A DNA stretch of 32,000 nucleotides, taken from the NCBI RefSeq assembly GCF_018228765.1, contig NZ_CP073695.1:2309218-2341217 (forward strand). The letters run 5' to 3'. The notes beneath the pieces are model-generated. The model had not been told where the DNA came from. It did no database searches and was given only the letters and a program-made list of their open reading frames with translations. Made by a program: the position numbers and the translations under genes. The DNA is from Halorubrum ruber (GTDB lineage Archaea; Halobacteriota; Halobacteria; Halobacteriales; Haloferacaceae). Shown one piece after another: positions 3,670 through 20,755 of this stretch (within the stretch, counting starts at the first letter, position 1; every line of letters starts with the position of its first letter).

Positions 3670-3828
3670 ATGACTACTCTCTCTGATGACGAAGTCACAA
3701 TTTCAAGTGACAAGATTGAACAAATTCGGGAGCGCGTACTGAAAGCAGAAAAAGAGAAACTCCACTTAGATCTCCCACGTGGGATTAATGACGAAATTGA
3801 GCAAATAATTATAGAGGAAATTAACTAA
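3670..3828 (+). CDS. 52-aa small protein, first gene of SMC operon (absent from supplied ORF track)
   Basis: MTTLSDDEVTISSDKIEQIRERVLKAEKEKLHLDLPRGINDEIEQIIIEEIN; stop overlaps the next start (TAATG); TATA box upstream. Confidence 0.65.
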   Translation: MTTLSDDEVTISSDKIEQIRERVLKAEKEKLHLDLPRGINDEIEQIIIEEIN

Positions 3829-5858
3829 TGCAGCTACAACAGATTGAGTTACTAAACTTTCGGCAGTTCCGGCACGAAGCGATTGAATTTGCTCAGTCCT
3901 CTGATAAAAATGTCACCATCGTACATGGTGCCAATGGGTCCGGTAAATCGACATTACTCAACGCGTTTACTTGGCTGCTCTATGATGAGGTGGATTTCGA
4001 CACGCGTCCTGACAGACTGGCAAGTGAGGGTGCAATGGCCGAAGCATCTGTAGGTGACTCGATCTGTGTTTGTGTGGAGCTAGAATTTCTACATGATGGT
4101 ACTGAATACGTCGCTAGACGGGAGGTTGAATATGAAAAACGGGCTGACGGCGATTTTGATGGTGAACTTGTCGATGCCAATATGACAGTCAAGTACCGGG
4201 AGGGTGGCCAGTGGGAGGAGCGACTGAATCCTGATAATACGCTTGACCAGATTATCCCGAAACGATTGAGTGGCTTGTTTTTCTTTGACGGAGAGGATAT
4301 AGACGAACTTGCAGGGATTGACAATCAAGATCGCATTCAGGAAGCAATTCAAAATATAATGGGGCTCACTATTCTTGAGCGCTCTACCCGTCATTTGGAT
4401 ACTGTAGCGGACCGATTTGAAGATGAGGTGGAAAAGTATGCAAGTGATGAACTTTCAGATCTTATCTCTCAAAAGCGTGATATAGAGGAGGCTATTGATG
4501 ATCTTCAACGAAAACTCCAAGATACGAAGCGGTCTAAGGATCAAGTAGAACAAGAGATATTTGATCTTGAGCAAAAACTTGAACGGTTAGATGAGAGCGC
4601 CGCTCTTCAAGAGCGAAGAAATGAATATCGAGAAGAACGCTCCGATATTGAAGAGAATATTGAACAAATAAATGAACAGATCCGGAAAGAAGTCAGTGAT
4701 CACGGCTTCATTCCCCTCTCAATGCCCCTTATTCGGGAGACTGCAGAAGAGCTAGATTCGATGCGGGAACGTGGACTCATTCCTTCTGAATTGAGCAATT
4801 CATTCATTGATTCTTTACTTGAATCTGGGAGCTGTCTCTGCGGTCGTGAGTTGAAGCCAGGAACTGAACATTATCGTAAGGTGGAGGCGATGAAAGGTGA
4901 GGCAATTGGTGATGGCGTTGAACAAGGGGCACTTCGTATTGTTGGACACCTAAATCGGGTCTCCGAGGAAGAATCCAAATTCTTTGAAACTGCTGATGAA
5001 CTTATCGAGGAGAGAAAAGAACTTCATGACGAGCTTGACGATTATGATGAGCTAATCGATGAGATAAGTTCGGAACTACAGAAGCTTGATCAGACAACTG
5101 AATCTGGTCAGACAATTGGTGAGTTAGAATCTGAACGTGAAGAAAACGAAAGAAAGCGAGACGACCTCATTTCAGATATAGGCGGTATTGAAGAGCGAAT
5201 CGATCACAAGGAAGATGAGTTAGAGAGCCTCAAAGAGGAGATAGAGCAGCAACGCGATGAACATGAGGAGGCCCTCCTAGCCAAGCGTCGGCAAAAGGCG
5301 ACTGAACTTGTAGAAGAAGAGCTAGAATCTTCGTTCTCTGAGTTCAAAAATCAGGTCCGGGAGTGGGCAAATGACGAAATAAGAAAAACGTTTGGTGAGA
5401 TTGCGAGCAAAAACTTCACTGCTGAAATAACCGAAGAATTCAAGCTCAAAATCTGGCAAGAGGTCGGTGACGATCGTGTCGAAGTAGACAAATCAACCGG
5501 GGAACGCCAGATTGCTAGTCTTGCTTTTATTGGCAGTTTAGTCAAAATCGCCAGACAGAGATATGAATCTGAGAAAGACTCAGAGTACTTCACTGGTGGA
5601 ATTTATCCGTTGGTGATGGACTCTCCTTTTGGCGCTCTTGACAAGCGGCATCGACAAAAAGTTGGAGAGGTTATCCCCACTCTTGCAAACCAAGTAGTGG
5701 TCTTTGCGACCGACTCGCAGTGGGAAGGGCCAGTTGAAGAGGAGATGTCCGACAGGATCGGCGAACAATTTTGGCTTGATTACGACCCGGGAGAGTCGCC
5801 CGGCGAGTACCCCCAAACGAAAGTTCGCTCAGAGAGCACATCCATGGAAGCTAACTAA
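3828..5858 (+). CDS. DndD-like SMC/Rad50-family ATPase
   Basis: Walker A GANGSGKST, N-terminal LNFRQFRHEAIEF, LSGLFFFDGEDIDELAG, long coiled coil with central GSCLCGREL, Walker B/D-loop YPLVMDSPFGALDKRHRQKVG. Confidence 0.85.
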   Translation: MQLQQIELLNFRQFRHEAIEFAQSSDKNVTIVHGANGSGKSTLLNAFTWLLYDEVDFDTRPDRLASEGAMAEASVGDSICVCVELEFLHDGTEYVARREVEYEKRADGDFDGELVDANMTVKYREGGQWEERLNPDNTLDQIIPKRLSGLFFFDGEDIDELAGIDNQDRIQEAIQNIMGLTILERSTRHLDTVADRFEDEVEKYASDELSDLISQKRDIEEAIDDLQRKLQDTKRSKDQVEQEIFDLEQKLERLDESAALQERRNEYREERSDIEENIEQINEQIRKEVSDHGFIPLSMPLIRETAEELDSMRERGLIPSELSNSFIDSLLESGSCLCGRELKPGTEHYRKVEAMKGEAIGDGVEQGALRIVGHLNRVSEEESKFFETADELIEERKELHDELDDYDELIDEISSELQKLDQTTESGQTIGELESEREENERKRDDLISDIGGIEERIDHKEDELESLKEEIEQQRDEHEEALLAKRRQKATELVEEELESSFSEFKNQVREWANDEIRKTFGEIASKNFTAEITEEFKLKIWQEVGDDRVEVDKSTGERQIASLAFIGSLVKIARQRYESEKDSEYFTGGIYPLVMDSPFGALDKRHRQKVGEVIPTLANQVVVFATDSQWEGPVEEEMSDRIGEQFWLDYDPGESPGEYPQTKVRSESTSMEAN

Positions 5859-5859
5859 A

Positions 5860-6342
5860 ATGGGACGTATTATCAATTACAAGAAAACCGAGCTGTACGA
5901 CACGCTGGTTGATGAGTACGAAGTCTTTGAGAATTACTATGACCTTCTCATCTTCCTTGCGGTTATAGGATATAAGGAAGACAACCCCGTCCGCGAGGGA
6001 TACCGTGGTAGTAGTTCGGAGGGTACAGCTGGTGAATCGGGGCTACATAATGTTTATTCTCAGGATCTGTATCGTACGATTATGGCTAGTCTAGCCTTTC
6101 AGGATACCGGAGACCCAGAGGCTCTCGTTGACGAACAAACACATATGAAAGTTCTTGCTCAGTATGCTGCAGGTGGACTAGAGATTGCCGAAGACGAGTT
6201 CGGAGATATTGCTGGTGATCCTACAGATGCGATAATCAATTATATAAAAATGTCTCAGAGCGAGGGCACCGGAACTGAAGGAGAGCTAGCCAAGATTGTT
6301 CAGAGTTTTGATGACGAGATGATGAACATCGAAGGGGAGTAA
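5860..6342 (+). CDS. protein resembling DNA phosphorothioation (Dnd)-associated protein 4
   Basis: True start is probably the ATG at 5860, 2 nt after the SMC stop. VFENYYDLLIFLAVIGYKED...VYSQDLYRTIMASLAFQDTGDPEALVDEQTHMKVLAQYAAGGLEIAEDEF matches my recollection of the family pattern (GYK...NGGLxIL). Confidence 0.6.
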   Translation: MGRIINYKKTELYDTLVDEYEVFENYYDLLIFLAVIGYKEDNPVREGYRGSSSEGTAGESGLHNVYSQDLYRTIMASLAFQDTGDPEALVDEQTHMKVLAQYAAGGLEIAEDEFGDIAGDPTDAIINYIKMSQSEGTGTEGELAKIVQSFDDEMMNIEGE

Positions 6343-6416
6343 ATTAGCATTACAGCAAGTATTTTTAAATTAGCCATATCCACAACATTAAGACGCCGCT
6401 GAGTATCAAGGGGACC

Positions 6417-8903
6417 ATGGAAGAGGAATCCAATACGCCACTTTGTGGCAAAGAGATTTTTCTCTATCCGGGTGACCCGGATGGAACCGGTATGCTAGCG
6501 TACGATACCACCCAATACAGAGATCAGTATGATAATCTTCAGTTTGCAGACAGTACACAATTTATTAGTTCATTAGAAGAGAATATACGCCTTGAAAATC
6601 GTTCTCTCCTCCGCGTAGCAGAGGGAGAGAGATTTGTCGTACCTGAATACCAGCGGAATTTTACTTGGGAAGAGGATCAACATGAGGAACTTTGGAACAC
6701 TATATTATCTATTCAGGACCTAAAGCCGAAAGCGAATAATCTTCCTGTTGATACTTACTTTGGAACTGTGTACGTCGCCCGCGACGCCGACGGAGATGTA
6801 TTCGAGATTATTGACGGTCAGCAGCGTCTGACCACAGTAGCAATTATTCTAAAGAATCTAAAGCAGCAGCTAGAAGCTCGATTCGACAGTATAGATGGGC
6901 AGCTTCTCGAATATGCACAACATGTCTGTGACCGCCATTTAGAGGATCTATTATTCCGTGCTGACGGTCCGGCTATTACTCCCTTCATTACGTTGAATGA
7001 CCACGATCAGCCGTTCTTTGATATTGTGTTTAAAGAGAAAGAGGACCGGATTAAACCAGTAAAAAATCTCCCGCAATATGATGGACGAAAGACAAACTCA
7101 ATCACTGTGCAGTCACTTCTTGATGAACTTGATATCCCAGAAGAAGCATACGAAGAGGATGAAGACTTTGAGGACACTGACATGCTTGAATCGTACCGCT
7201 ACTATGGAGATGCACATAGACGACTCGTTAATGCTGACAAATTCTACAAGAAAAATATTAGACAGTTCATTGAGAAGGATATCTTTGAAACTCCGGCGAC
7301 AAAGGTCCGAGCGTTGCTAAATCTGACTCACTATATTCTCCGTTCCCTTCGCGTCTCAGAATGTATCTTTGAGACTAGTAATCAGGAGCTCCGAATCGAA
7401 GTCTTTCAATCGCTCAACGACCGTGGTGTTGAGTTATCGAATATGGATAAGATTCGAGCTCGTGTTGTGGGGCGATTCCAAGGAGAATCAGATAGTGGTG
7501 TACAGATCGATCGCTGGGAAAGCGTTGTCAAGACGTTTGGAGGAGATTCCGATGATGTTGAAGACTTTCTTGCCCACTATCTTGCAGCGACAGAGAAAGA
7601 ATTCTCTACGGTCACAGAAGCGAAAAACGAAATGCTCGAAGCATTTCGTCTCAAACAAATCGGTCATCACGATATCCAATCGAGACTGGCAAGCCCAGGC
7701 CAGGCTCGGGACTTCTTAGAAGAATTAGTGAATTATGCACAGCGATATCGTGAAATTGTTTCTGCCGATTTGACAGATGACGATTTAGAGCTGAAAGACC
7801 CAGAAAAAAGCGAGTGTGAGGAGATTCTCAAGCGGCTCAACAAACTTGGAACTAAACAGTGGCGGCCGTTCGTGATGTACGTCTACCAAGCGGTGACGGA
7901 AGCCCCACAAAAAGATCAGTTTTTGGTCGATGTCTTGAAAACAGTAGAGAATATCTCGTTCCGATTTTCTATATCGGATCTTGTCGGCACAGTCGTTGAT
8001 GACACTTATCCGGATTCCTGCCAAGAATTTCGAGAGCTTGAGCAGACGGGGAATCAATTTGATTCCGAGGAGGTATCTGAGATTCTTATTGAGAATATCG
8101 ATAATTCTGCACGACAGATGTTCGGCGAATCATTCATCGATCGACTTGTTAGTAAAGAGAGTTGGAACAACAACAAGACAAAACAACTGTACTTGAAGGT
8201 CGCGGATGAAGACTTTAGGAAGAGAAATCAGGTTGGGATCACGAACTCTCACCTCAGTTCAGACTCTAGTGAAGTACATATTGAACACGTACTCCCAGTA
8301 TCATACATTTTGCCTAAGAAAGACCATCCGTATGCGTGGTTAGAGCACTTCTTCCGTAATAACGGAGATAACAAGATTCGCACTCAGATCGATTATCTTC
8401 AGTCACGTGACGCACACGAGCTGTCACCCGGTGACGACGGCTATGATGAGATCGAGCGAATCGTAAATGGAATCGAGGAACGCTTCGTACGTGATCTTGG
8501 AAACATGATTTTGCTTGACGAAGCGGTCAACCGGCCGATTCAGAATCGTCTCTTTTCAGTCAAGCTCAAGGAGTACCACAAAGAGCACAGCAAGGACATG
8601 GAAAACATCATCAACCAATACTTCGGTACTGATGGAGCAATTGACGAAGCGGAACTTCAGCGCTTACTAGCGCTTGATATGCCCGATGATGAGACGAGAT
8701 CTAGTTCTCCCTCACTTGTTCAAGATTTCAACGAGTGGTGGACGTATGAGCGCCTCGTACAACGGAAATCACAGCTAGTGTCTGAAATTTTGGAATCACT
8801 CACATTCCCAACCAGACCAGACGAGTTCGAACCGTTTGTAGATGATATCGAAAATATAGTCGAGGAAGATGTTCAGAAGCGTTTAGCAGTTCTAACTGTC
8901 TAA
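6417..8903 (+). CDS. DUF262-DUF1524 fusion protein (GmrSD/SspE-like putative modification-dependent restriction nuclease)
   Basis: N-terminal VPEYQRNFTWEEDQHEELW and EIIDGQQRLTTVAIIL (DUF262); C-terminal VHIEHVLPVSY and LGNMILLDEAVNRPIQNRLFSVKLKEY (DUF1524, His-Me finger). Confidence 0.88.
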   Translation: MEEESNTPLCGKEIFLYPGDPDGTGMLAYDTTQYRDQYDNLQFADSTQFISSLEENIRLENRSLLRVAEGERFVVPEYQRNFTWEEDQHEELWNTILSIQDLKPKANNLPVDTYFGTVYVARDADGDVFEIIDGQQRLTTVAIILKNLKQQLEARFDSIDGQLLEYAQHVCDRHLEDLLFRADGPAITPFITLNDHDQPFFDIVFKEKEDRIKPVKNLPQYDGRKTNSITVQSLLDELDIPEEAYEEDEDFEDTDMLESYRYYGDAHRRLVNADKFYKKNIRQFIEKDIFETPATKVRALLNLTHYILRSLRVSECIFETSNQELRIEVFQSLNDRGVELSNMDKIRARVVGRFQGESDSGVQIDRWESVVKTFGGDSDDVEDFLAHYLAATEKEFSTVTEAKNEMLEAFRLKQIGHHDIQSRLASPGQARDFLEELVNYAQRYREIVSADLTDDDLELKDPEKSECEEILKRLNKLGTKQWRPFVMYVYQAVTEAPQKDQFLVDVLKTVENISFRFSISDLVGTVVDDTYPDSCQEFRELEQTGNQFDSEEVSEILIENIDNSARQMFGESFIDRLVSKESWNNNKTKQLYLKVADEDFRKRNQVGITNSHLSSDSSEVHIEHVLPVSYILPKKDHPYAWLEHFFRNNGDNKIRTQIDYLQSRDAHELSPGDDGYDEIERIVNGIEERFVRDLGNMILLDEAVNRPIQNRLFSVKLKEYHKEHSKDMENIINQYFGTDGAIDEAELQRLLALDMPDDETRSSSPSLVQDFNEWWTYERLVQRKSQLVSEILESLTFPTRPDEFEPFVDDIENIVEEDVQKRLAVLTV

Positions 8904-9097
8904 GACTAGACTCTGCTATGGCCTACTCTTCAAATATACACTTACAGGGAATAGTAGGTCACTGAAGGATTGGAATAGGGCAGACTGGCCTATTTAAAAC
9001 GGTACTTCATCTTTTTCGAACTCTCCTCCCAATCATAGCCCTAATCACAGTCTTCACAATCGCATATACATGGCCCCTCTAATCAAATCTGTCAGAA

Positions 9098-9757
9098 TCA
9101 GACTGGTTGCTTTACAAACTCTGTTACAACGTAGAACGGAAGCGTATCAATTAGCGCGACAAGCAGCTTCACGATGTACTGCCCAGCGACGATTGAGGCG
9201 AGTGCCCAGCCCCACGTTGGCTCCCCACCAAGGCCGAGTGCCGGGAAGATAGCGAAGCCGAGCGTGATGAACACGATCGTGTCCACGCCTTGACTGACTG
9301 CAGTAGACCCACAGTTCCGAAGCCAGCGATGGCGACCGCCGGTGCGAGTCTTCAGATTGGCGAATAATCGGACGTCGAGATGCTGGGCGAACGCGAGCGC
9401 GACGACGGAGGCGAGGATGATCGATGCGGAGCCGCCAAGCGTCGATACGAACGCGTCTTGTCCACCGTAGAACGGGGCAGACGGCATCCAAATGGCGAGG
9501 AACACGAGCGCATACGCGATGACGAGCGTGACGACGGTTCCGTTGACCACGGTCGCAGCGTACTCTTTCCCGTGGTACTCGACAAGCAGGTCTGAAGCGA
9601 GGTAAGCCACGCCGAAGGCGACGAAACCGGCGGGGACGGCGACGCCCCCAAGCCCGGGGAGCTCGATCCACGTCAGTTTCGCTGCGAGGACGTTTGCGAG
9701 AACGATTGAACCGGCGAACACGGCGGTGAAGATCGCGCGAGTATCCTCAGTCTCCAT
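9098..9757 (-). CDS. queuosine precursor transporter family (DUF165/YhhQ-like)
   Basis: Multi-pass membrane protein; ANVLAAKL...VPAGFVAFGVAYLASDLLVEYHGKEYA...FANLKTRTGGRHRWLRNCGSTAVSQGVDTIVFITLGF is typical of the family. Confidence 0.88.
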   Translation of the reverse strand: METEDTRAIFTAVFAGSIVLANVLAAKLTWIELPGLGGVAVPAGFVAFGVAYLASDLLVEYHGKEYAATVVNGTVVTLVIAYALVFLAIWMPSAPFYGGQDAFVSTLGGSASIILASVVALAFAQHLDVRLFANLKTRTGGRHRWLRNCGSTAVSQGVDTIVFITLGFAIFPALGLGGEPTWGWALASIVAGQYIVKLLVALIDTLPFYVVTEFVKQPV

Positions 9758-9911
9758 CAGCTGTCACCGTCTTGTATGGGCGTACAGTTTCCTGTGGTTC
9801 GCTGTCTTGAGCTGACCCCAGTAGAAACCGGTGCGCAACGACCGATAGGGTAGACGGTGGATGAGTGTGAGTCGGGTTGCTGTTCCATCGGTGAAGTAAC
9901 GAAACTCAATC

Positions 9912-9920
9912 TTTATATAT
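9912..9920 (+). promoter_or_regulatory. TATA box upstream of queD
   Basis: TTTATATAT about 25 bp upstream of the ATG at 9941 (leaderless arrangement). Confidence 0.5.
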
Positions 9921-9940
9921 TCCCCGAATATTCTTCGAGT

Positions 9941-10402
9941 ATGTCCCGAAGTATATCAAGAGATGAATCCGAATCAGACGTCCTTCGTGAGGCCGGCCAA
10001 CGAACCCTCCACATCGGAGAGGATAACCCCATCCGAATTAGCTCGGGCCACCGTATTCTCCACCACGACGGAAAGTGCTCGCGGCCACACGGCCACAACT
10101 ACGAGATCGCCGTCGAAGTTACCGGCGAACTCATCGAAGAGGGGTGGGTCGTCGACAAAGGTGACGTCACAGACGTCATCGACGCGTGGGATCACCGATT
10201 CCTTGTCGAGGAGGGTGACCCGCTCGTCGACGCATTCGAGGCGTCGGGCGACGGCGACGCCCTCGTCGTCCTCGATCACCCACCAACGGCAGAGGTAATG
10301 AGCGTGCTCCTCGAACAGCGAATGCTCGACGCGTTCCCCGACACCGTCTCCGACGTGTCGGTGTCGGTGAGTGAAACCGGCGAGCTCTGTGCGAGTTACT
10401 GA
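9941..10402 (+). CDS. queD: QueD-family 6-carboxy-tetrahydropterin synthase
   Basis: ISSGHRILHHDGKCSRPHGHNYEIAVEVTGE; WDHRFLV; HPPTAEVM; overlaps queE by 1 nt. Confidence 0.88.
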   Translation: MSRSISRDESESDVLREAGQRTLHIGEDNPIRISSGHRILHHDGKCSRPHGHNYEIAVEVTGELIEEGWVVDKGDVTDVIDAWDHRFLVEEGDPLVDAFEASGDGDALVVLDHPPTAEVMSVLLEQRMLDAFPDTVSDVSVSVSETGELCASY

Positions 10403-11178
10403 TGCCAGTCGTAAGCGATGTGGAAGAACCCACAACGGACGCTGACGCGGCTGGTGAGGGCCTCCCAATCAACGAGGTGTTCTACTCGTTGCAGGGTGAG
10501 GGGACGCTCGCAGGCGTTCCCTCTGTCTTCGTGCGGACTTCTGGGTGTAACCTGCGGTGTTGGTTCTGCGATTCCTACCATACGTCGTGGGAGCCGACCG
10601 GCGCGTGGCGCGATGTCGACACGATCGTGGAAGAAGTACAGTCGCACGAACAGGCGAACCACGTCGTACTCACGGGCGGGGAGCCGCTCATCCACGAGGA
10701 GTCCATCGATCTCTTGGAGCGACTCGACGCCGAGGGGTACCACACAACGGTGGAGACAAACGGGACCATCTACCGGGACGCACCAATCGACCTCGCAAGC
10801 ATCAGCCCGAAGCTGGCGAGCAGCACGCCGACGCCGGATCGGGACCCGAAAGGCGAGGGCGAGTGGGAAGAGAAACACGAGCAAAACCGGATCGATATGG
10901 ATGCGTTGTCCCAGATGGTCGACGACTACGAGACGCAACTCAAGTTCGTCGTGACCGATGAGACAGACCTTCCGGAGATTACGGACCTCGTCGATCGAGT
11001 GCGGGCGGCGGCGACGACGACCATTGCTGACGACGACGTGTTGTTGATGCCGGAAGGTATGACGCGGGAGCAACTTGACGGAACGCGAAGCCAGGTGGCA
11101 GAGTTAGCGATGGAGTACGGCTACCGATACACCCCCCGACTCCACGTGGACCTGTGGAATGACGCACCCGGGACATGA
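10402..11178 (+). CDS. queE: 7-carboxy-7-deazaguanine synthase, radical SAM
   Basis: NEVFYSLQGEGTLAGVPSVFVRTSGCNLRCWFCDSYHTSW with CxxxCxxC; VVLTGGEPL; TVETNGT. Confidence 0.92.
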   Translation: MPVVSDVEEPTTDADAAGEGLPINEVFYSLQGEGTLAGVPSVFVRTSGCNLRCWFCDSYHTSWEPTGAWRDVDTIVEEVQSHEQANHVVLTGGEPLIHEESIDLLERLDAEGYHTTVETNGTIYRDAPIDLASISPKLASSTPTPDRDPKGEGEWEEKHEQNRIDMDALSQMVDDYETQLKFVVTDETDLPEITDLVDRVRAAATTTIADDDVLLMPEGMTREQLDGTRSQVAELAMEYGYRYTPRLHVDLWNDAPGT

Positions 11179-11263
11179 ACGTCGCCTTGGTCGGCCCGAC
11201 CGATGGAGTGCCGTGGGGGCGTGGTGAACAGGACGACAATTGACTCAACACAACCGAAAATAC

Positions 11264-11953
11264 ATGAGCAATAAAAGCGCGGTCATTCTGGTTTCTGGCG
11301 GGATGGATAGTGCGACAGCGGTGTACGAAGCAATGGATCAGGGGTACGAGCCGTACTTCCTCCACACCTCATATGGGCAACGCACCGAAGACAAAGAGTA
11401 CGAGTGCGCACAGGCACTTGCCGAGGAGGTCGATGCGGCTGACTTCCTCCACATTGAAACGGGCCATCTCGCACAGATTGGGGCGTCGAGCCTGACGGAC
11501 GAAGAGATGGACGTCGCCGATGCTGACTTGGAGAGCGACGAAATTCCCACGTCGTACGTCCCCTTCCGCAACGCGAATCTACTGTCGATGGCAACATCGT
11601 ACGCAGAGGCGACTGACTCGGAGGCGCTGTTTATCGGAGCCCATTCTGAGGACTTCTCCGGGTATCCGGACTGTCGTCCGGCCTTTTTTGACGCCTTTCA
11701 GCAGGTGATCAACGTCGGAACGAAGCCCGAGACGGAAATCGAGTTGAAAGCGCCGTTCGTCGAGTGGTCGAAAACAGACATCGCTGAGCGTGGGTTAGAA
11801 CTTGGTGTCCCATACGACATCACGTGGTCGTGTTACCGGGACGAAGAGCCGGCGTGCGGGACGTGTGATGCGTGTGCGTTCCGGCTTGAGGCGTTCCGAA
11901 ATGCTGGGTCACGTGACCCGATTGCGTACGCTGAGCGACCTAAGTTTTCGTAA
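11264..11953 (+). CDS. queC: 7-cyano-7-deazaguanine (preQ0) synthase
   Basis: VILVSGGMDSATA PP-loop; VPFRNANLLSMATSYAE; FIGAHSEDFSGYPDCRPAFF; zinc motif SCYRDEEPACGTCDACAFR. Confidence 0.92.
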   Translation: MSNKSAVILVSGGMDSATAVYEAMDQGYEPYFLHTSYGQRTEDKEYECAQALAEEVDAADFLHIETGHLAQIGASSLTDEEMDVADADLESDEIPTSYVPFRNANLLSMATSYAEATDSEALFIGAHSEDFSGYPDCRPAFFDAFQQVINVGTKPETEIELKAPFVEWSKTDIAERGLELGVPYDITWSCYRDEEPACGTCDACAFRLEAFRNAGSRDPIAYAERPKFS

Positions 11954-11997: not shown

Positions 11998-12399
11998 TTA
12001 GGATTTGTTGCTGGTGTCGCCAGTAAACTCATCCTCTCCGTTGAGTCGTCCCGTGACTCCATTTATAGCATAGATGAGTGTTGCTGCGACGTCGAACGCC
12101 TCTGTTCGTGACAGTCCCGAGATGGGCTTGGTCACGAACTCTTCTCCGTCCATATTCACACCAGTGATTGGAGTTACCGTATAGTCGCCATCGCCCATCG
12201 TCCCGTCAAGACGAACGAGGATTGTTTGATCGTCATCGTATATCCACTCAACGTAGTACTCATCATGAATCTCTTCGCTCCATCCTGACGGATAATAATC
12301 AAGACGCTCAGTTTCGCTTTCTGGCATGAGACGTATCTTGGTGTCGTCTACAGCAACAAATAAATCTGGTTGCGTGTCCTTCTGATGTAGTCCTCTCAC
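11998..12399 (-). CDS. hypothetical acidic protein
   Basis: 133-aa ORF (GTG start in track) lying between queC and a duplicated queC 3' end; DYYPSGWSEEIHDEYYVEWIYDDDQTILVRLDG. Confidence 0.55.
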   Translation of the reverse strand: MRGLHQKDTQPDLFVAVDDTKIRLMPESETERLDYYPSGWSEEIHDEYYVEWIYDDDQTILVRLDGTMGDGDYTVTPITGVNMDGEEFVTKPISGLSRTEAFDVAATLIYAINGVTGRLNGEDEFTGDTSNKS

Positions 12400-12421
12400 T
12401 GTATTAGCGCACGTGATTTTT

Positions 12422-12487
12422 GAAGCGTTCCGAAATGCTGGGTCACATGACCCGATAACGTACTCTGAGCGGCCAGAATTCTCGTGA
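12422..12487 (+). pseudogene. remnant of a second, diverged queC 3' end
   Basis: Reads EAFRNAGSHDPITYSERPEFS* in frame against queC C-terminus EAFRNAGSRDPIAYAERPKFS*. Confidence 0.85.
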
Positions 12488-12603: not shown

Positions 12604-12789
12604 ATGCCGAAGGTAAGCGTTGAAATCCCTCAAGAGTTACTTGACGATCTTGACGACCACGTCGGCGACGAAGGAAAATTCGTCAACCGAAGCGACGCGA
12701 TTCGCGCCTCAATCCGCAAAACGCTCGATCTGCTAGAGGAAATCGATGAACGACAAGGGCGGATTGACTCATCTGAGGCTGACGACTGA
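12604..12789 (+). CDS. ribbon-helix-helix (CopG-like) transcriptional regulator
   Basis: 61 aa; MPKVSVEIPQELLDDLDDHVGDEGKFVNRSDAIRASIRKTLD. Confidence 0.85.
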   Translation: MPKVSVEIPQELLDDLDDHVGDEGKFVNRSDAIRASIRKTLDLLEEIDERQGRIDSSEADD

Positions 12790-13006
12790 GATTTCTGATC
12801 GACATTGCTACTGTTCAACAGGAGAACTCACGTACCAACCAGCCTGGTAAATTCCCACAGTCTGCGGAGAATCTCTGTCGGATATAGAAGAGAGGCTACC
12901 CAGATGGGCACCACTTAGAGAAGATAGACCGAATTGATTCAAAAAATGATATATAGTTTATAATTCTAATGGAAAGATATATTTCATCACCTACAAACCA
13001 AAGAAT

Positions 13007-13732
13007 ATGGCTGATGATCCCGATATCATGACGGAGATTCTTGATGATATGAAATTGGATGACGATCGTGTCGATAATGAGTCCACCGATGGTCAATCCC
13101 AAAGTGAAGACATTCCGAATCTAGATGATTTACAAAAAGATGAGCGTCTTGAGCAACTAACCGAAGTAGGTCTTTTAACGGACGAAGAATATGATATACT
13201 GACTGAATATTATGATCGTACCACTAGTTCTGGCCAGCAAGAGTTCGGAACGCCGGTATACACCAGTGAAGGCTCAGAATTTGACTTTTCAATAGTTGGG
13301 GTTTTCCAAGATGTGAATACTAAAATTCTAACACTTCCGGAGTTCCTGAGCGTTGAGGAAGCTGACGATACCGAGACGTGGGATAATGAAGGGGGCCCTG
13401 GTCGAACGATTGTTTGTTTTCAGATTTACAATCACAGCTCCGAAGAAATCATGCTAAAACACAAAAATATCGAATATATCGGAGACAATGGAATTGCGTA
13501 CAATTATGACGGGAATCCATTAGTTAGTGATAGGCTTGAACCAGGCTGGCGAACCGATAACTGGGAATATATCGGACCAGATACAAGAATTCAGTACGCA
13601 TCTGTAATCGAGATGCCTGTGATTCCTGACTCATTGAAGCTCTCCGGATACTGGGAAGATACACATGAAATTGAACTAATAGATGACTTGTTTTTCCCAA
13701 AATCTGATTTACCGACTTCCGTTGAGATTTGA
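13007..13732 (+). CDS. hypothetical protein, acidic N-terminus, SHOCT-like segment, beta-rich C-terminus
   Basis: 241 aa; LEQLTEVGLLTDEEYDILTEYY, then FDFSIVGVFQDV...TIVCFQIYNHSSEEIMLKHKNIEYI resembling DUF4352-like domains. Confidence 0.65.
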   Translation: MADDPDIMTEILDDMKLDDDRVDNESTDGQSQSEDIPNLDDLQKDERLEQLTEVGLLTDEEYDILTEYYDRTTSSGQQEFGTPVYTSEGSEFDFSIVGVFQDVNTKILTLPEFLSVEEADDTETWDNEGGPGRTIVCFQIYNHSSEEIMLKHKNIEYIGDNGIAYNYDGNPLVSDRLEPGWRTDNWEYIGPDTRIQYASVIEMPVIPDSLKLSGYWEDTHEIELIDDLFFPKSDLPTSVEI

Positions 13733-13855
13733 GAAGCTGACTCACTCTTTACAGAACTTTCAAATCAGATAATCAATCGCTGAAAGCACGTATAGACCGT
13801 ATCAGAGTCAGAACTTGTCACCTGAGGGTGTCTCAATAGAGCCTCTAAGAAAAAT

Positions 13856-15463
13856 CTATCCGGCGAGGAGGTCATATCTACGCTTTACTTCTTGTAATGA
13901 CCCCGTGGATGTCGGAACACCATCAACATCGGCGTCCGGATGATTCCGAGCAGTTTCCGCAAACATCGAAACTCGTTCGAGTTCCTTCCGGATGAGTGTC
14001 CGCTCAATTTCATACTGATCGTCGGACAGCATTTCTGGGTGTCTTTGAGTATCTGGTATTGTGATGAAGTCATGAATTACGGCATATTTTTTACCTTCGT
14101 ATTTTCGAAGGATCCGTCCTCTTCGTTGGACGTATTGTCGTGGATTCGATGTACTTGCTAGGATGTATGCCGTCCGTGTAGCAGGAATATCAACGCCCTC
14201 GTCAAGACATCTAATAGAAGTTAGAACGTCAATTTCTTCCTCATCGAACCGTGTCAACAGCTGTTTTCGTTCCTGTTGATTTTCGCGTGCGGTAAAGCGC
14301 TCAACAGACAAGTTACACTCATTTCGGATTCTCTCTGTTGTCAGGTCTACGTGACGCTGTAATTGGCCATCAACCTCCAATTTGCCATCACTACAGTAGA
14401 CAAGCGTGTGCTTGGTATCTATCTCAGAATTCAATAAATCAATAAGCAAGAATAGCTTCTCACGAGCGGTACCAATTAATCGAGCTCTTTTAAAAAGAGC
14501 TTGCTGTAAAGCAGGATTCTGTTCAAGATTCAAATTCCCTTCTTTGTCATTCGATTTCCCTGCAAGTCGACCGATCTTTGTGGTCAAACGCATGTACTCC
14601 TCCATCTCTTCGTCCTGTAATTCGACTATATGGGGAATGTAGTAATACTCACATAGTGCACCGGCTTCGATAGCTTTCTCAAGTCCATATTCAAAAACGG
14701 TTCCTCCAAAATATGCATCCAATTCTTTCGTCCCTTCTTCATCATACCATCTTTCTGGCGTTGCCGAAAGACCAAGTCGGAGGTCAAACTGATCACTAAG
14801 TGCCTCCTGTGTCTGAGCAGCACCCATATGGTGTACTTCATCTGCAATCAGCATTGAATTCCCGTTAGCCCTTCGAATTGTTTTTCTCGCAGATTCTCCT
14901 GACAGCGTTCGGTGTGTTGTAACTACTACGCAGGTGTCACGCATTCCGTTGTTGAATTCTAGCAGCTCACGTTCAAGCCGAGGTTGCCAATTACGTCGTG
15001 ATTCAAAGGCAAGAACAGGGGTAGCACCGAAATCATCGAGGTTAGATTTCCACTGATTAACGAGATGTTGATATGGCACTGCGACGACGAGCAGGAATTT
15101 TTTATCGACAGACTGATCCACACGCGTCGCGGCAAGGAGGGCTGTGACCGTTTTACCAGTCCCTGTTGCCATTTCTAGTATTCCCTTTCCTCCGGCAGAC
15201 ATCCACTCTTGTATTGCTTCTTGTTGATATGGACGGGCTTCTATCCAATCAGGAACGTGGAGGCCCTCATGAGACATCTTATCTACCTCAAAATGGCCCG
15301 CTGATATATATCTAAGCCGTGATGTTAAATTCACCAAAGTTAGGATTCCAAAAGCATCCTTAGCGAGAGTTCGAGTTGTTTTGGTCAAGAGAAGATTTGG
15401 TAACGAGTACTCTTTTACCTCCTCGGGATCGATACGGTTGCAATGACAACGCTTCTGGTACAA
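13856..15463 (-). CDS. SF2 DEAD/DEAH (SSL2/XPB-like) helicase, resembling Dnd-system restriction helicases
   Basis: GILEMATGTGKTVTALLAA; MLIADEVHHMGA; LGLSATPERWYDEEGT; TSIRCLDEGVDIPATRTAYILASTSNPRQYVQRRGRILRKYEGKKYAVIHDFI. Start could instead be the internal Met near 15277. Confidence 0.85.
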   Translation of the reverse strand: MYQKRCHCNRIDPEEVKEYSLPNLLLTKTTRTLAKDAFGILTLVNLTSRLRYISAGHFEVDKMSHEGLHVPDWIEARPYQQEAIQEWMSAGGKGILEMATGTGKTVTALLAATRVDQSVDKKFLLVVAVPYQHLVNQWKSNLDDFGATPVLAFESRRNWQPRLERELLEFNNGMRDTCVVVTTHRTLSGESARKTIRRANGNSMLIADEVHHMGAAQTQEALSDQFDLRLGLSATPERWYDEEGTKELDAYFGGTVFEYGLEKAIEAGALCEYYYIPHIVELQDEEMEEYMRLTTKIGRLAGKSNDKEGNLNLEQNPALQQALFKRARLIGTAREKLFLLIDLLNSEIDTKHTLVYCSDGKLEVDGQLQRHVDLTTERIRNECNLSVERFTARENQQERKQLLTRFDEEEIDVLTSIRCLDEGVDIPATRTAYILASTSNPRQYVQRRGRILRKYEGKKYAVIHDFITIPDTQRHPEMLSDDQYEIERTLIRKELERVSMFAETARNHPDADVDGVPTSTGSLQEVKRRYDLLAG

Positions 15464-15877
15464 TCCTGTTCAGACACCAAAAACTCAGTCTCTACGCCCA
15501 CTCCGGCTCTTGATGTATATGATGGATATTTTTATAAAATTATCAAGAAGGCTATAAGAGAAGGAGAGTTTCGATCTGATATCGATATTCGAATTCTATC
15601 TGCAAAGCATGGTCTTCTCAAACCTAATGAGAAGATTCGATCCTATGACCGCCAGATGACTCAATCACGAGCTGCGGACCTTCGAGAGTCTGTCACAATG
15701 AATCTACAAGAACTGGTACAACAAAAGGAATACAACCGGATCGTTCTTAATATGGCCCGCGAGTATCGAAGTTCAATCGGAGAAATTCATGATTACCAAG
15801 GGCAAGTGAGTGAGATCTCTGGGAGTGGTATTGGCGAAAAGGGTGGGAAACTCAAGAAGTTCATCCGGGGAGACTGA
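15443..15877 (+). CDS. DUF6884-like small protein
   Basis: MTTLLVQSCSDTKNS...DIRILSAKHGLLKPNEKIRSYDRQMT...YNRIVLNMAREYRSSI; first gene of the TGT/GHKL operon. Confidence 0.65.
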   Translation: MTTLLVQSCSDTKNSVSTPTPALDVYDGYFYKIIKKAIREGEFRSDIDIRILSAKHGLLKPNEKIRSYDRQMTQSRAADLRESVTMNLQELVQQKEYNRIVLNMAREYRSSIGEIHDYQGQVSEISGSGIGEKGGKLKKFIRGD

Positions 15878-15881
15878 CTGA

Positions 15882-17123: not shown

Positions 17124-17125
17124 CA

Positions 17126-18679
17126 ATGTCAACAACAAAAACTCCCCAGGTAAATGAAGTAAACGAGTTCCTAGAAATTGCGAGTGACTTCGAAGATCCG
17201 CTCGAAGTAATCCGTGAATCCCTGTCTAATAGCTACGATGCAGGGGCTACTGAGGTCGAGATTACGATTAGAGACAGACCGATTGGATCCGAGATCGTGA
17301 TCGAAGATGATGGTGACGGGATGGACTATGCTGACCTAGAATCCTTCTTCGATTTGGGCAATTCGACGAAACGAGACCCGTCCTCTGATGCCATCGGCTA
17401 CAAAGGACATGGGACAAAAATATTCTATAAAAGCGAGGAGGTACTCGTCAATACTTCCAAAGAAGGAACGAATCTCCGTGCGCAAATGGAACAGCCCTGG
17501 GAAAAACTCAACAACCGAGTAATGCCTGAATACGAAGTTAGAGAACGCTCGGTGAAGGAGGGTAATAACGGGACTCACATCCGCATTACCGGATTCAAAT
17601 CCGGACGTGGATTCTCTCCTTCCTCACTTACTTATAATAAAATTGAACACTATTTGAAATGGAAGACGCTTGCAGGATCCACCGCTCACTACTTCACAGA
17701 TGACTATCACGAGATGGATATATATATCACGTTGGGTGACGAGATCGACGATACCCAGGAAACGCTCAAATTAGATAATAAACTCGAATTTCCCGATGAA
17801 CAGATTGAGCCCGGAGAAGGAAAATTTCCGGAATCAAGGATGTGTAAGCACTATCCACCTCGTGAGCTGACGGTGGAGACTGATGACGGAGATACAGCAA
17901 TTATCGAAGTAGTAGGCATGATTGGTGGGAAAGATGCTCGCAACGAACTCCCAACATACGGGAAGCATTCAGCGCAATTCGGGATCTGGCTTGCTAAGGA
18001 TTATATCAAAGTCGAACGTGTCAACGAAGTCATCTCACATGACAACGAGTTCCTCCACTTCTTTTTCGTGGCAAACTGCCAAGATATTGAGCTCTCTGCG
18101 AACCGTGAGAAAATCCGGAACAAATCGAGCTCTATCTACCAAGCAATTAAAGAAGAATTGAGCCACTATCTTTCCAAAATAGCTTCTGATCCTTGGTTCA
18201 AGGATTATCTCAATCAGCGACGAAAGGCCAAACTCTCGCGTCGAGCAGAATCTCAACAGTCTTCAGTCGAAGACCGTGAGAAGCGAATTCTCGATCGTGA
18301 GCAGTTTACTCCCTCTAATGATGCTGAGGTAGTTCTCGGTCTTGAAAGATCAAACCGGGAAGGTGCTCTCCCTAAGATTGTCGTTGAGGACTACGACCCC
18401 AGTGTAGAGGTTAACGCACTCGTCAAGCAGGATGATTCACTCTATGCGAGTTCGATCCATCATAAACTCACAGACCATTTTGAGGCAGACAAGCCTTTGG
18501 AGTCTGTTGATAAAATCATCTGCTGGTCGTATGGTGACCCCGACCAACTGAGTGAACTTGAGCGTCATGGATATCATGGGGGAGATATCACATTTGACCT
18601 CAATACAGGTCGGATTGAGTATCAGAACGGTCGAAAGCATAATATCCATATCGTTTCTGTCGAACAACGGTTTCAGTAG
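17126..18679 (+). CDS. GHKL ATPase (MORC/Hsp90-like N-terminal fold)
   Basis: VIRESLSNSYDAGATEVEI (N box), IVIEDDGDGMDYADLESFF, AIGYKGHGTKIFY, GTHIRITGF, ELSANREKIRN; starts 2 nt after the TGT 1 stop. Confidence 0.85.
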   Translation: MSTTKTPQVNEVNEFLEIASDFEDPLEVIRESLSNSYDAGATEVEITIRDRPIGSEIVIEDDGDGMDYADLESFFDLGNSTKRDPSSDAIGYKGHGTKIFYKSEEVLVNTSKEGTNLRAQMEQPWEKLNNRVMPEYEVRERSVKEGNNGTHIRITGFKSGRGFSPSSLTYNKIEHYLKWKTLAGSTAHYFTDDYHEMDIYITLGDEIDDTQETLKLDNKLEFPDEQIEPGEGKFPESRMCKHYPPRELTVETDDGDTAIIEVVGMIGGKDARNELPTYGKHSAQFGIWLAKDYIKVERVNEVISHDNEFLHFFFVANCQDIELSANREKIRNKSSSIYQAIKEELSHYLSKIASDPWFKDYLNQRRKAKLSRRAESQQSSVEDREKRILDREQFTPSNDAEVVLGLERSNREGALPKIVVEDYDPSVEVNALVKQDDSLYASSIHHKLTDHFEADKPLESVDKIICWSYGDPDQLSELERHGYHGGDITFDLNTGRIEYQNGRKHNIHIVSVEQRFQ

Positions 18680-18733
18680 ACGGCTGCAGGTAGCCGACTT
18701 TATCACATTCCGACTTCAATCAAAAGCCATAGA

Positions 18734-20755
18734 ATGGCATCGTTTGAGACTACATCTTCTGACGAGGCCGGTAATGCTCGAACCGGAACTCTCCACACTC
18801 CTCACGGTGATGTGGAAACGCCAGCGTTCTTCCCAGTTGTCAATTTCATAGGCGGACCAGATGAGAAATCAGGGGGAATATGGAGCCGACTTCGGAATCA
18901 CCTATTCGGCGAACCGGATTTTCAGGGAGCGATGTTTCAAGCGATGAGCTTCCTCGATTTTAACATCTCTCCCGATTCTCTCGATAACTGGCGATCAAAG
19001 TCTCTTCATGAGCATTTCACTGGGCATGAGCCAGTTAAGCCATATCATGATCAGCCGGAAGACTTTACCAAGCCGTTGTTTGTTGACTCTGGCGGATTCA
19101 AACTGCTGAATTCCGATACGTTCGGAGATAGACCTGAGGAGGGTGGTTCAGATAACGACTGGTCGATATACACCAATCCTGAGAGCATCCTTGAATTACA
19201 ACTTGACTACGGCGCGGACATAATTGCCACACTAGATTACCCCATTCCACCGAATCTCAACGAGGAAGAGACGACTCAGCGAATGGAAGACAGTATTGAT
19301 AGTGCTATACGCTGTCTTGAGCTTCTTGAACAAAGAGATGAGTCACCAGCAGTCTATGTGGCCATTCATGGCCACGACTACGAAACGATCAACTGGTATG
19401 TTGGTACGTTTCTTGACCGGGCAGGAGACCTTGACAACGCGTTCGAAGGGTTTGCAGTAGGGTCGCTAGTTCCACTCCGCACCAACGTAGAAACACTCGT
19501 TGATATTGTACAGGGTGCGAAGGATGCAATTCCTGAAAATCGGGTAGACGACCTCGGACTGCACCTGTTCGGCATTAGTGGGAAGTTCACTGCACTTCTT
19601 GCTCTTCTGGGTGCAGACTCGTTCGATTCATCTAGCTACATCCGTGCTGCCCAATTCAAGAAATTCATCAACCGCGAAATCGGTGTTGACGACGGTACGA
19701 CCGTTCGGCACCCAGATTCGGATAGCCACGATCTTGGCGATTTTGGTGTCGACATAGAACGGACATCTGAAGCGCGCTGGGCAGCGGACTGGTCAAAGTT
19801 CTCTGCCGATCAGATCCCCGACGACTGGGATTGCCAGTGCTCAGCTTGCGAAGCACTCCGCGAGATTGGGTATGACCAGATGCAGTCCACCCTATTCGAC
19901 AGCAAATCGTATGACCAGAGCGGAGATCATATGAAGAGCGATTTCTACGCGCTAATGGGGTATCACAACTTCCACGTTTATCAAGACGAGATGGACTATG
20001 TCCGCAATCTTATCCAACAGGGAGATGGTGAACTCCTCGACTACGTCGCTAAGATGGCCCGTAATGATGTAGGCGGCATTAGACAGGCACTCAAACGGGC
20101 TACTGTCCGCGACAGAGATTTGGCTACAGAACTCCGAGAACGTGGTTACGACAGACTCGTCGCTGAACGGGCGGACGGAGAGCAGGAACGCCTCAATGTC
20201 GACCTTCCGGTTGAAAGCCACGAGATCTCTCTTGAGTACACGCCCGAGGACTTCAATGTCTTAGAGCGTGACGACTATTGTCCGGGTGACGAACGAGTAC
20301 TTCTGATCATACCCTGCAGTCAAACCAAGCCGTACTCAAATTCCCGCACTCACCGAGTAGTCGCTGACGCGACTACCGAATGGAAGGATGAAATACACAA
20401 AGTCACCGTTTCAGGGATGTACGGTCCTGTCCCTGAAGAATTTGAGAATATTTCACCGATCAAATCATACGAATACGTCCTAACTGATGCCGAAACAGAC
20501 CGTCAGAATCTCATCAAAAATCGACTCGTCGAATATTTAAATCGTTTTGGCGGTGACTTCGATGTAATTGTTGGCTACGCCACGAGTAAGACATATCGTG
20601 AAGTCATCAAGCGATCCTTGGAAGAGTATGGCGAAGGTGTAGTTTTGCCTCGTGAACCCGAAATGCGAGCGTTGACAGAACACTTCCGTACAACGAATCT
20701 TCAGCAATTGGCAGACTATCTTGAGGAAGAATTAGCACCCCAAACCCGGAATTAG
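18734..20755 (+). CDS. TGT/DpdA-like transglycosylase 2 fused to DUF5591-like C-terminal domain
   Basis: NARTGTLHTPHGDVETPAFFPVVNFIGG; LFVDSGGFKLLNS; FAVGSLVPL; LHLFGISGKFTALLALLGADSFDSSSY; CQCSAC...MGYHNFHVYQDEM; C-term ERVLLIIPCSQTKPYSNS...IKSYEYVLTDAETDRQ...FDVIVGYATSKTYREVIKRSL. Confidence 0.82.
   Translation: MASFETTSSDEAGNARTGTLHTPHGDVETPAFFPVVNFIGGPDEKSGGIWSRLRNHLFGEPDFQGAMFQAMSFLDFNISPDSLDNWRSKSLHEHFTGHEPVKPYHDQPEDFTKPLFVDSGGFKLLNSDTFGDRPEEGGSDNDWSIYTNPESILELQLDYGADIIATLDYPIPPNLNEEETTQRMEDSIDSAIRCLELLEQRDESPAVYVAIHGHDYETINWYVGTFLDRAGDLDNAFEGFAVGSLVPLRTNVETLVDIVQGAKDAIPENRVDDLGLHLFGISGKFTALLALLGADSFDSSSYIRAAQFKKFINREIGVDDGTTVRHPDSDSHDLGDFGVDIERTSEARWAADWSKFSADQIPDDWDCQCSACEALREIGYDQMQSTLFDSKSYDQSGDHMKSDFYALMGYHNFHVYQDEMDYVRNLIQQGDGELLDYVAKMARNDVGGIRQALKRATVRDRDLATELRERGYDRLVAERADGEQERLNVDLPVESHEISLEYTPEDFNVLERDDYCPGDERVLLIIPCSQTKPYSNSRTHRVVADATTEWKDEIHKVTVSGMYGPVPEEFENISPIKSYEYVLTDAETDRQNLIKNRLVEYLNRFGGDFDVIVGYATSKTYREVIKRSLEEYGEGVVLPREPEMRALTEHFRTTNLQQLADYLEEELAPQTRN

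Follow-up and report, generated by a model that had tools for sequence, protein, structure and literature searches.

A genomic island of Halorubrum ruber that joins a candidate 7-deazaguanine DNA modification module to Pbe-type restriction genes

Introduction

To our knowledge, 7-deazaguanines have so far been reported in DNA only for bacterial Dpd islands, for phages and for viruses of archaea. In the bacterial systems, DpdA requires the ATPase DpdB, and DpdC converts dPreQ0 to dADG (2'-deoxy-7-amido-7-deazaguanosine) (PMC10164549); some bacterial dpd clusters also contain yhhQ (PMC5699537). For phages, Cui et al. found that the DUF5591-only protein ArcS2 of Vibrio phage nt-1, together with DpdA2, produces 2'-deoxyarchaeosine (dG+) in plasmid DNA from dPreQ0 (PMC10516641). 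The Pbe proteins, which in haloarchaea accompany the phosphorothioate (Dnd) genes, stop virus replication only if the host DNA is marked, and a marked virus escapes (PMC6459918). Xiong et al. (2019) found 320 of 553 PbeAC pairs to be without dnd genes and suggested that these have other modification partners (PMC6459918), and Rakesh et al. described CxC systems that pair with phosphorothioate genes or cytosine methylases (PMC10853773). Here we describe a stretch of 32,000 nucleotides from Halorubrum ruber (contig NZ_CP073695.1, positions 2,309,218 to 2,341,217; hereafter the window), in which Pbe-type genes, genes for preQ0 synthesis and import, and a four-gene module with two tRNA-guanine transglycosylase (TGT) family proteins lie together in one island.

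We consider it probable that this is a composite island of restriction-modification (R-M) type with an immune role, in which an archaeal Dpd-like modification module feeds a Pbe-type restriction module, the self mark being a 7-deazaguanine DNA base rather than a phosphorothioate.

Results

Linkage of the Pbe block with the TGT module

Gene identities were taken from Pfam, NCBIfam and PADLOC scans of the window proteins (Table 1). Homologs of PbeC fall into about 500 clusters, those with names being haloarchaeal, and we surveyed the surroundings of PbeC in 80 metagenome loci and 9 further contexts that were fetched. Across these loci the core order of helicase, small open reading frame (ORF), PbeC and PbeD was universal. 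The window's PbeC clade was defined as the loci with a PbeC at least 58% identical to that of the window, which gave 14 non-redundant lineages, and 11 of the 14 were linked to TGT, que or DpdJ/K-like genes. Seven lineages had TGT genes in the fetched stretch (the window with L040; L035/L036/L056; L042; L052; L055; L121; L123), and two had a que block with the module just past it or on the same contig (L039/L053 with L020; L122). Two more, L037 and L120, had a DpdJ/K-like pair, and a TGT2 or GHKL homolog was found on a contig of equal size (76,205 bp and 81,132 bp). The remaining three (L045/L046, L047 and L051/L062) showed none of these genes. No dndC, dndA or DNA methylase gene was observed in any of the 14 lineages.

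The Pbe core adjoined the module in L035/L036/L056, L040, L042, L052, L055, L121, L123 and L039 with L020, which amounts to direct adjacency in at least seven independent lineages and at least four gene arrangements. The brine contig L035/L036 carries the complete set of nine genes as a back-to-back pair of operons, with TGT2, GHKL, TGT1 and DUF6884 running one way and PbeA, the 52-aa gene, PbeC, PbeD and GmrSD the other, and Vut_1 and queD nearby. Locus L055 has the single-strand run PbeA-PbeC-PbeD-TGT2-DUF6884-TGT1-GHKL, and L052 the co-directional run DUF6884-TGT1-GHKL-PbeA-PbeC-PbeD. A preliminary description of this DNA had tentatively coupled the two blocks and named their co-occurrence elsewhere as a check; they do co-occur, and the partners of the PbeC clade further support the coupling. 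Such clade-specific partner choice, combined with varied direct adjacencies, is hard to explain through island clustering alone.

PbeC lineages at 40–54% identity to the window never carried the four-gene module. DndC and/or DndA genes were found there in L066 and L076, and a DUF499/DUF1156-methylase system in L073–L091; the bacterial relatives L085–L089 had DndCDEA together with a PbeA of more than 700 aa. In three of the 40–54% lineages (L063/L064, L067 and L068), a D12-class (Dam-like) methylase was paired with a GHKL ATPase of 620–650 aa, a pair that parallels the writer-plus-GHKL layout of the TGT module. Two loci, L069 (at ~640–1700) and L090 (at the locus start), had a lone short TGT-like gene of 361 aa, ~30% identical to TGT1 and TGT2, beside PbeC-PbeD, and the stretches fetched for these loci contain no PbeA helicase. 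This short TGT is a second, independent TGT link to the CxC/DndE pair.

Proteins of the TGT module

TGT1 and TGT2 share 32% identity, and the nearest solved relative of both is the catalytic domain of the Pyrococcus arcTGT (1IQ8; E 2.7e-24 for TGT1 and 5.5e-25 for TGT2). No bacterial DpdA structure was among the PDB sequence matches of either protein. Against the DpdA equivalog NF041059 (cutoff 200) the two TGTs scored 29.7 and 19 bits, with the TGT fold and motifs present. Both proteins keep the two catalytic aspartates and a conserved Cys/His zinc site, and in TGT2 residues D118, D295, D298, C367, C372 and H411 are invariant in an alignment of 14 sequences (A1). Both proteins lack the C2 and PUA tRNA-binding domains of arcTGT and ArcS. 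The two TGT/DpdA-like genes of the preliminary description are thus both present, although it had overlooked that the second also carries an ArcS-type DUF5591 domain. In this domain, PCSQTKPYSNSRTH is the full ArcS motif, PC-X3-KPY-X2-S-X2-H (PMC5699537), which marks the ArcS C1 domain and is invariant in the same 14 sequences. The ArcS model covers TGT2 at model positions 288–432 only, with 82.8 bits (cutoff 440), and the protein stops shortly after DUF5591. Judged by these sequence comparisons, archaeal arcTGT and ArcS resemble the modification module more than bacterial DpdA does. TGT2 proteins of the Halorubrum clade also have an insertion of ~36 residues (~313–352; window 19670–19790) between the catalytic barrel and the zinc site, which was not seen in other clades.

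The best family of the DUF6884 protein is DUF6884 itself. Its score against YaaA/DUF328 (PF03883) was 30.0 bits, barely over the cutoff of 29.6, and PADLOC matched it to DpdC at E 8.7e-7. The CxxxK and LSAxxG motifs described for the family (PMC11701544) are kept in 30 sequences, and a profile-profile alignment placed its CSDTK onto the PCSQTKPY of DUF5591 (E 3.7e-4, probability 36%).

In the GHKL ATPase, the Bergerat motifs (E31/N35, DxGxG and GxxGxG) are invariant, and it conforms to MORC-type GHKL ATPases, which join these motifs to a transducer (S5-like) domain. The best PDB matches that Foldseek found for its model (pLDDT, predicted local distance difference test, 73) were MORC2/3/4, the PMS1 N-terminal domain and GyrB, at E 3e-5 to 8e-4, of which the MORC2/3/4 alignments spanned 425–464 columns (E 3e-5 to 2e-4) at a low TM-score of ~0.3. 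The ATPase of the module is therefore GHKL/MORC-like and not DpdB, a ParB-like protein with DGQQR and without a nuclease motif; the only DGQQR protein of the region, the DUF262-DUF1524 protein, retains the EHxxP nuclease motif.

Distribution of the TGT module

TGT2 has about 300 homolog clusters, and all named ones are haloarchaeal. When one genome per species was scanned, 34 loci were obtained, 33 of them haloarchaeal and one from a Poribacteria metagenome-assembled genome (MAG), and DUF6884, TGT1, GHKL and TGT2-DUF5591 occurred all together in 29 of the 34. Three module orders were observed: DUF6884-TGT1-GHKL-TGT2, TGT2-DUF6884-TGT1-GHKL, and TGT2 on the strand opposite the trio. The closest relatives are L001 (Halorubrum sp. 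GN11_10-6_MGM, a near-twin of the window) and the brine metagenome contig L040, and further copies reside on haloarchaeal plasmids and megaplasmids. Identities of TGT1 and GHKL to their window counterparts correlate (r = 0.94–0.98), whereas among distant loci the identity of TGT2 is uncoupled from that of TGT1/GHKL (r = −0.27 to −0.38), and TGT2 occurs without the trio in L015, L018, L021, L030, L032, L121 and L123. The module thus appears to consist of two sub-modules, TGT1-GHKL(-DUF6884) and TGT2-DUF5591.

No TGT2 relatives were found among the 2.9 million viral contigs of IMG/VR, and the 50,697 phage records of INPHARED yielded nothing but a distant Staphylococcus phage TGT. A viral origin of the module was rejected for this lack of close relatives.

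Genes other than Pbe also accompany the module. A DpdJ-like helicase of 1370 aa (PADLOC 180 bits) and a DpdK-like PLD nuclease (43 bits) flank it in seven loci, a 1574-aa DEAD + MZB helicase with three or four companion genes is near it in at least five, and GIY-YIG, PglZ-like and SF1 helicase genes are further neighbors. A protein of 390–430 aa without a family match (c9) adjoins the module in nine loci (L002–L006, L010, L022, L023 and L028), on the strand opposite the adjacent module gene, and a 157-aa protein (c11) and a GIY-YIG protein (c16) lie near the module in eight and seven loci, respectively. The Poribacteria MAG locus (L032, 17–13055) has a TGT2-DUF5591 homolog of 35% identity beside a 1103-aa PLD-SNF2 helicase and an Eco57I/MmeI-type methylase. 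A different TGT family, annotated as tRNA-guanine transglycosylase, occurs on many haloarchaeal plasmids; it matches over a stretch of ~250 aa, with 28–32% identity to TGT2 residues 16–312.

The preQ0 supply genes

In 12 genome loci the module has genes for QueD, QueE and QueC at its side, in some cases together with folE. The window has no folE (GTP cyclohydrolase I) gene, so the FolE-QueD-QueE-QueC set is incomplete there; FolE is part of the que block in L039, L042 and L122. The window que block has a third-codon-position guanine-plus-cytosine content (GC3) of 0.66–0.76, which is host-like, against 0.36–0.50 for island genes, and its identity to the que block of Halorubrum alkaliphilum (L023), where the adjoining module is far more distant, is 93–94%. 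These features, together with a surviving relic of an older queC 3' end, suggest that the que genes were replaced rather than newly juxtaposed, and the relic itself points to a long residence of que genes in the island. That the que block is a chance chromosomal neighbor was rejected, as the relic and the que genes beside 12 other module copies indicate recruitment or replacement. The true start of QueD is probably near 9941, judging from homologs of 152–155 aa.

The Pbe-type block and its nuclease

The 52-aa ORF carries the conserved motif IRERVLKAEKEKLHLDLPRGIN and is found directly upstream of PbeC in 53 loci, which is the position and form of PbeB. PbeC reached only 160 bits against DndD (TIGR03185, cutoff 246), far less than against its own family (Table 1), and the zinc hook of the CxC clade, C336-x-C338, is invariant with G339 and R340 in the PbeC alignment (A2). 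From its matches and these residues, PbeC belongs to the CxC sister clade of DndD and is neither a DndD nor an SMC protein. PbeD followed PbeC directly in every locus fetched. Next to it, the DUF262-DUF1524 protein has both Pfam domains above cutoff and shows DGQQR and IEHVLP (EHxxP) in its translation, as in the GmrSD/SspE family; the same gene occupies the same post-PbeD position in L035, L036 and L040, and its product is a probable effector or sensor of this lineage.

The PADLOC PbeA match to the window helicase spans model positions 242–672 only, and since it begins at position 242, the helicase is without the HKD nuclease domain. Haloarchaeal PbeA-type homologs are ~470 aa long and normally lie ahead of PbeB-PbeC, and bacterial ones exceed 700 aa. 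The window therefore has no canonical PbeA, with HKD and SF2 helicase domains and encoded by the first gene of the operon: HKD is absent and the gene is detached from PbeBCD. PbeB, PbeC, PbeD and GmrSD are inverted relative to PbeA, with the que block and two small genes, one of which is that at 13007–13732, between them, a rearranged layout shared with L040 and probably with L001. As for DndCDEA, PAPS_reduct and Aminotran_5 genes were absent both from the window and from every locus of its PbeC clade; such genes occur in L066, L076 and L085–L089, which belong to other PbeC clades.

All genes listed in the preliminary description are present, and profile matches support them, with several identities refined. 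What it called a DndD-like SMC ATPase is indeed an ATPase related to DndD, though it is PbeC. Its Dnd-type SF2 helicase comes close to TIGR04095 and is of PbeA type, with the HKD domain of canonical PbeA missing. The restriction parts that it likened to those of phosphorothioate systems are of the Pbe/CxC type and not DndFGH or Ssp. It saw no dndA, dndC or dndE; the first two are absent, whereas dnd_assoc_4/PbeD is considered the cognate of DndE (PMC10853773).

Island setting

The genes described here lie in an island of low guanine-plus-cytosine content (GC) at ~3000–28900, with 44–50% GC against 58% in the left flank and 69–73% in the right flank. A tRNA-Leu gene forms its right edge. An inverted copy of the 3' half of this gene, 48 nt long and 90% identical, lies 215 nt upstream of it (28670–28717 versus 28933–28980), and the window has no direct att-type repeat of the tRNA-Leu 3' end. 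A direct repeat of ~210 nt (21703–21912 and 26826–27037; 77–100% identity with a 24-nt exact core) flanks a 5.1-kb segment that codes for a serine recombinase, an HNH endonuclease and a TRAM-domain protein; this segment is possibly a nested mobile cassette. Four copies of a 59-nt portion of the repeat are present in the window (also at 20822 and 23126).

The left flank (12–2812) differs in composition from both the island and the right flank. It codes for a UvrD-like helicase (ORF 12–1490), which begins a few bases inside the window edge and matches the UvrD N-terminal domain partially, and for a 441-aa protein without a family match. A 12-nt palindrome, ACACGATCGTGT, has three exact copies, at 2232, 3387 and 9271, where shuffles gave an expectation of zero, and near-copies at 10612 and 22388. 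One copy is inside the 858-nt gap upstream of the PbeB-PbeC operon, and the palindrome includes GATC, at which the Dnd-Pbe system of H. jeotgali places its phosphorothioate.

Table 1. Features of the window, with the matches that identify them (empty cells, nothing recorded).
Feature	Coordinates	Strand	Support and remarks
PbeB-like protein, 52 aa	3670-3828	+	stop overlaps PbeC start (TAATG)
PbeC, CxC-type ABC ATPase, 676 aa	3828-5858	+	PADLOC PbeC 760 bits, full length
PbeD / dnd_assoc_4	5860-6342	+	TIGR04062 49.7 bits (below cutoff 74); homologs carry PF27807
DUF262-DUF1524 (GmrSD/SspE-type) NTPase-nuclease, 828 aa	6417-8903	+	GmrSD_N 104 bits, GmrSD_C 30.9 bits
Vut_1 (formerly DUF165; YhhQ family) transporter, predicted preQ0 salvage	9098-9757	-	PF02592 135 bits
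QueD	9857-10402	+	PTPS 70 bits; TIGR03367 70.6 bits (below cutoff 89.25)
QueE, radical SAM enzyme	10402-11178	+	Radical_SAM 64 bits; QueE NCBIfam 92-105 bits (below cutoffs 206-300)
QueC, preQ0 synthase	11240-11953	+	PF06508 246 bits
133-aa protein	11998-12399	-	no Pfam match; cluster c37, near que genes in L001, L011, L025
Relic of older queC 3' end	12419-12484	+	66-nt direct repeat of 11886-11951, 85% identity; tblastn 22 aa, 77%
241-aa protein	13007-13732	+	41-44% identical to gene downstream of dnd_assoc_4 in L073, L077, L078, L079, L091
PbeA-type SF2 helicase	13856-15277	-	TIGR04095 560 bits (cutoff 600); PADLOC PbeA 550 bits; divergent from TGT operon
DUF6884 protein	15443-15877	+	PF21818 52 bits; candidate DpdC/YaaA-like nitrile converter
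TGT1, catalytic domain only, 413 aa	15882-17123	+	PF01702 97 bits
GHKL ATPase, MORC-like, 517 aa	17126-18679	+	HATPase_c_3 63 bits
TGT2 fused to ArcS-type DUF5591, 673 aa	18734-20755	+	TGT 109 bits, DUF5591 70 bits
Serine recombinase	22094-22861		5.1-kb segment
HNH endonuclease	23295-23777		5.1-kb segment
TRAM-domain protein	25956-26369		5.1-kb segment
tRNA-Leu gene	28902-28986	+	ARAGORN; GC climbs from ~50% to ~70%

Discussion

The island resembles the bacterial Dpd system (dpdA-K; Salmonella Montevideo) in the linkage of preQ0 genes and a yhhQ-type carrier to an enzyme of the TGT family, in its ATPase partner, in its predicted YaaA/DUF328-like nitrile-converting protein, in the DpdJ-like helicases and DpdK-like PLD nucleases of related loci, and in its location at a tRNA-Leu gene, as in Salmonella Montevideo. 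It differs in having two TGT paralogs that are arcTGT-like and not bacterial DpdA, a MORC-like GHKL ATPase in place of the ParB-like DpdB, DUF6884 in place of DpdC, an ArcS-type domain fused to one TGT, no dpdD-K genes in the window, and an archaeal host. With the phage pair DpdA2 + ArcS2 of Vibrio phage nt-1 it shares a transglycosylase + DUF5591 core with PCX3KPY and no PUA domain; in contrast to the phage pair, both domains are fused in one 673-aa protein, the setting is cellular and not viral, and a second TGT, the GHKL ATPase and DUF6884 are added.

Its restriction genes are like those of haloarchaeal DndCDEA-PbeABCD systems in the order of PbeB, PbeC and PbeD, the PbeA-type helicase and the host group. 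Unlike those systems, the island has no dndC, dndD, dndE or dndA, its helicase is without HKD and apart from PbeBCD in the window, a GmrSD/SspE-type nuclease is added, and the partner is a TGT/que module. That nuclease shares the DUF262 (DGQQR) + DUF1524 (EHxxP) architecture with GmrSD/GrwAB and with SspE of SspABCD-SspE, which senses a host DNA mark; its similarity to SspE is weak (E 5e-13) and limited to the N-terminal region, and its gene, unlike those of SspE and GmrSD, closes a Pbe operon. The island is thus a strict member of neither Dpd nor Pbe, because the DpdA thresholds are missed, DpdB and dpdD-K are absent, the DpdC link is marginal, and the HKD domain and dnd genes are lacking.

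Our literature search, whose coverage was incomplete so that an earlier mention is possible, found no description of a TGT-GHKL-DUF6884 module, of a cellular archaeal DNA deazaguanine system, or of a Pbe-TGT pairing. The nearest published idea is the TGT/GNAT arm of the BREX-related capture (BRC) systems (2026; PMC12839542), in which, as here, a TGT homolog is the presumed modification arm of a non-Dpd defense; the BRC core differs in consisting of HerA/FtsK, PglZ and BrxC-like proteins, and BRC systems are without DpdC-like, ArcS-like or Pbe genes.

By analogy with these systems, the island could work as follows. QueD, QueE and QueC, with FolE supplied by the host, would make preQ0, and the YhhQ-type carrier, going by its family, would import salvaged preQ0. 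TGT1 and the MORC-like ATPase, with TGT2, might then exchange guanine for preQ0 in double-stranded DNA, a partnership of TGT1 and GHKL that we model on bacterial DpdA and its ATPase DpdB. It is plausible that the ParB-type clamp ATPase DpdB and the MORC-type clamp ATPase are functional analogues. The ArcS2-type DUF5591 domain and the DpdC/YaaA-like DUF6884 protein may turn the nitrile into an amidine or amide, so that the DNA mark is probably dG+ or dADG-like. The Pbe core of helicase PbeA, PbeB, PbeC and the DndE-like PbeD would use this mark to separate self from invader and, having lost the HKD nuclease, may be supplemented in this lineage by the DUF262-DUF1524 nuclease of SspE/GmrSD type.

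Several points weigh against a deazaguanine self mark that is read by the Pbe proteins. Both TGTs score far under the equivalog cutoffs for DpdA and ArcS. Counted from the TGT side, Pbe genes are found within 10 kb at just 2 of the 29 genome loci (L001 and L020), so the module is not dependent on Pbe, and co-regulation is not evident because the Pbe operon of the window is split and partly inverted. For two of the 11 linked lineages, L037 and L120, the linkage to TGT2/GHKL is an inference from matching contig sizes. Defense genes also gather in islands without functional coupling, and GmrSD-type enzymes are usually modification-dependent (type IV) nucleases. A GmrSD relative, GrwAB, attacks 7-deazaguanine-modified DNA (PMC12137116); the window GmrSD would therefore clash with a self mark unless the two derivatives differ, and it might target a viral derivative instead of reading the host mark.

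A version with two different 7-deazaguanine marks can be put forward tentatively. Semi-independent sub-modules would produce them, TGT2-DUF5591 making dG+ or a lysine-adduct base and DUF6884-TGT1-MORC a dADG-type base, with interchangeable readers (Pbe, DpdJ/K-like or DruE-like) on chromosomes and plasmids.

The two blocks could also be independent neighboring systems that share only an island, with the TGT/que genes standing alone or serving other partners and Pbe + GmrSD forming a separate system. This we regard as unlikely. The scarcity of Pbe near TGT modules and the split operon agree with it, as do the modules beside DpdJ/K-like, DruE-like, PglZ-like and GIY-YIG genes and the Pbe cores next to DUF499/methylase systems; yet independence does not account for a linkage that is specific to one PbeC clade without any other modification gene, nor for direct adjacency in several orders, co-directional in L052 and L055 and divergent in L035, and Pbe needs a host DNA mark (PMC6459918).

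Another explanation is that a mobile element modifies its own DNA to evade host restriction, as phages with DpdA do, and that no immune self mark is involved. Its low GC, tRNA-Leu edge and serine recombinase, the module copies on plasmids and megaplasmids, and the protection of phage DNA by 7-deazaguanines (PMC6884629) would suit such an element. We nevertheless judge it improbable, since the viral and phage collections hold no relatives apart from the distant Staphylococcus phage TGT, the module is constantly accompanied by helicase and nuclease genes, and the linked Pbe clade has no other modification partner.

We are a little more doubtful still that the four-gene module is by itself a complete R-M pair, in which the TGTs and DUF6884 would write and the GHKL protein would restrict. 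The four genes move as a unit, the GHKL protein matches at its N-terminus the BbrUII/HgiDII family of restriction enzymes (NF050001) at E 3e-12, GHKL-nuclease fusions such as GHKL-Shedu are known (PMC12137116), and a Dam methylase + GHKL pair is found next to other Pbe clades. The C-terminal 125 residues, however, although confidently modeled (pLDDT 94), have no nuclease-like or other match in the PDB (best E 0.17) and lack a conserved (D/E)xK motif, and the tight co-evolution of GHKL with TGT1 suits an enzyme-helper pair.

We rejected as most improbable that the TGT paralogs work on tRNA or another RNA in an alternative archaeosine pathway, or serve as glycosylases that remove deazaguanines from viral DNA: although arcTGT and ArcS are their top sequence and structure matches and haloviruses carry dPreQ1 (PMC6884629), PUA, C2 and C3 tRNA-binding domains are missing from them, they occur sporadically and on islands or plasmids, housekeeping tgtA, arcS and queDEC exist at other places in haloarchaeal genomes (supplement of PMC6459918), and the preQ0 synthesis and import genes that adjoin the module argue for base insertion rather than excision.

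Conclusions

If the island does write a deazaguanine self mark for a Pbe core, it would be the first system for writing 7-deazaguanines into the DNA of cellular archaea, and a MORC-like ATPase would there assist a DNA transglycosylase in place of the ParB-like DpdB. It would also provide a concrete alternative mark for one PbeC clade without phosphorothioate genes, an open question of Xiong et al. (2019; PMC6459918), and represent a natural swap experiment, in which the same reader core is combined with sulfur, methyl or deazaguanine writers. If there are two marks, archaeosine-type bases would exist in cellular archaeal DNA, and the Pbe/CxC machine would be a general reader of DNA marks, whether on the base or on the backbone.

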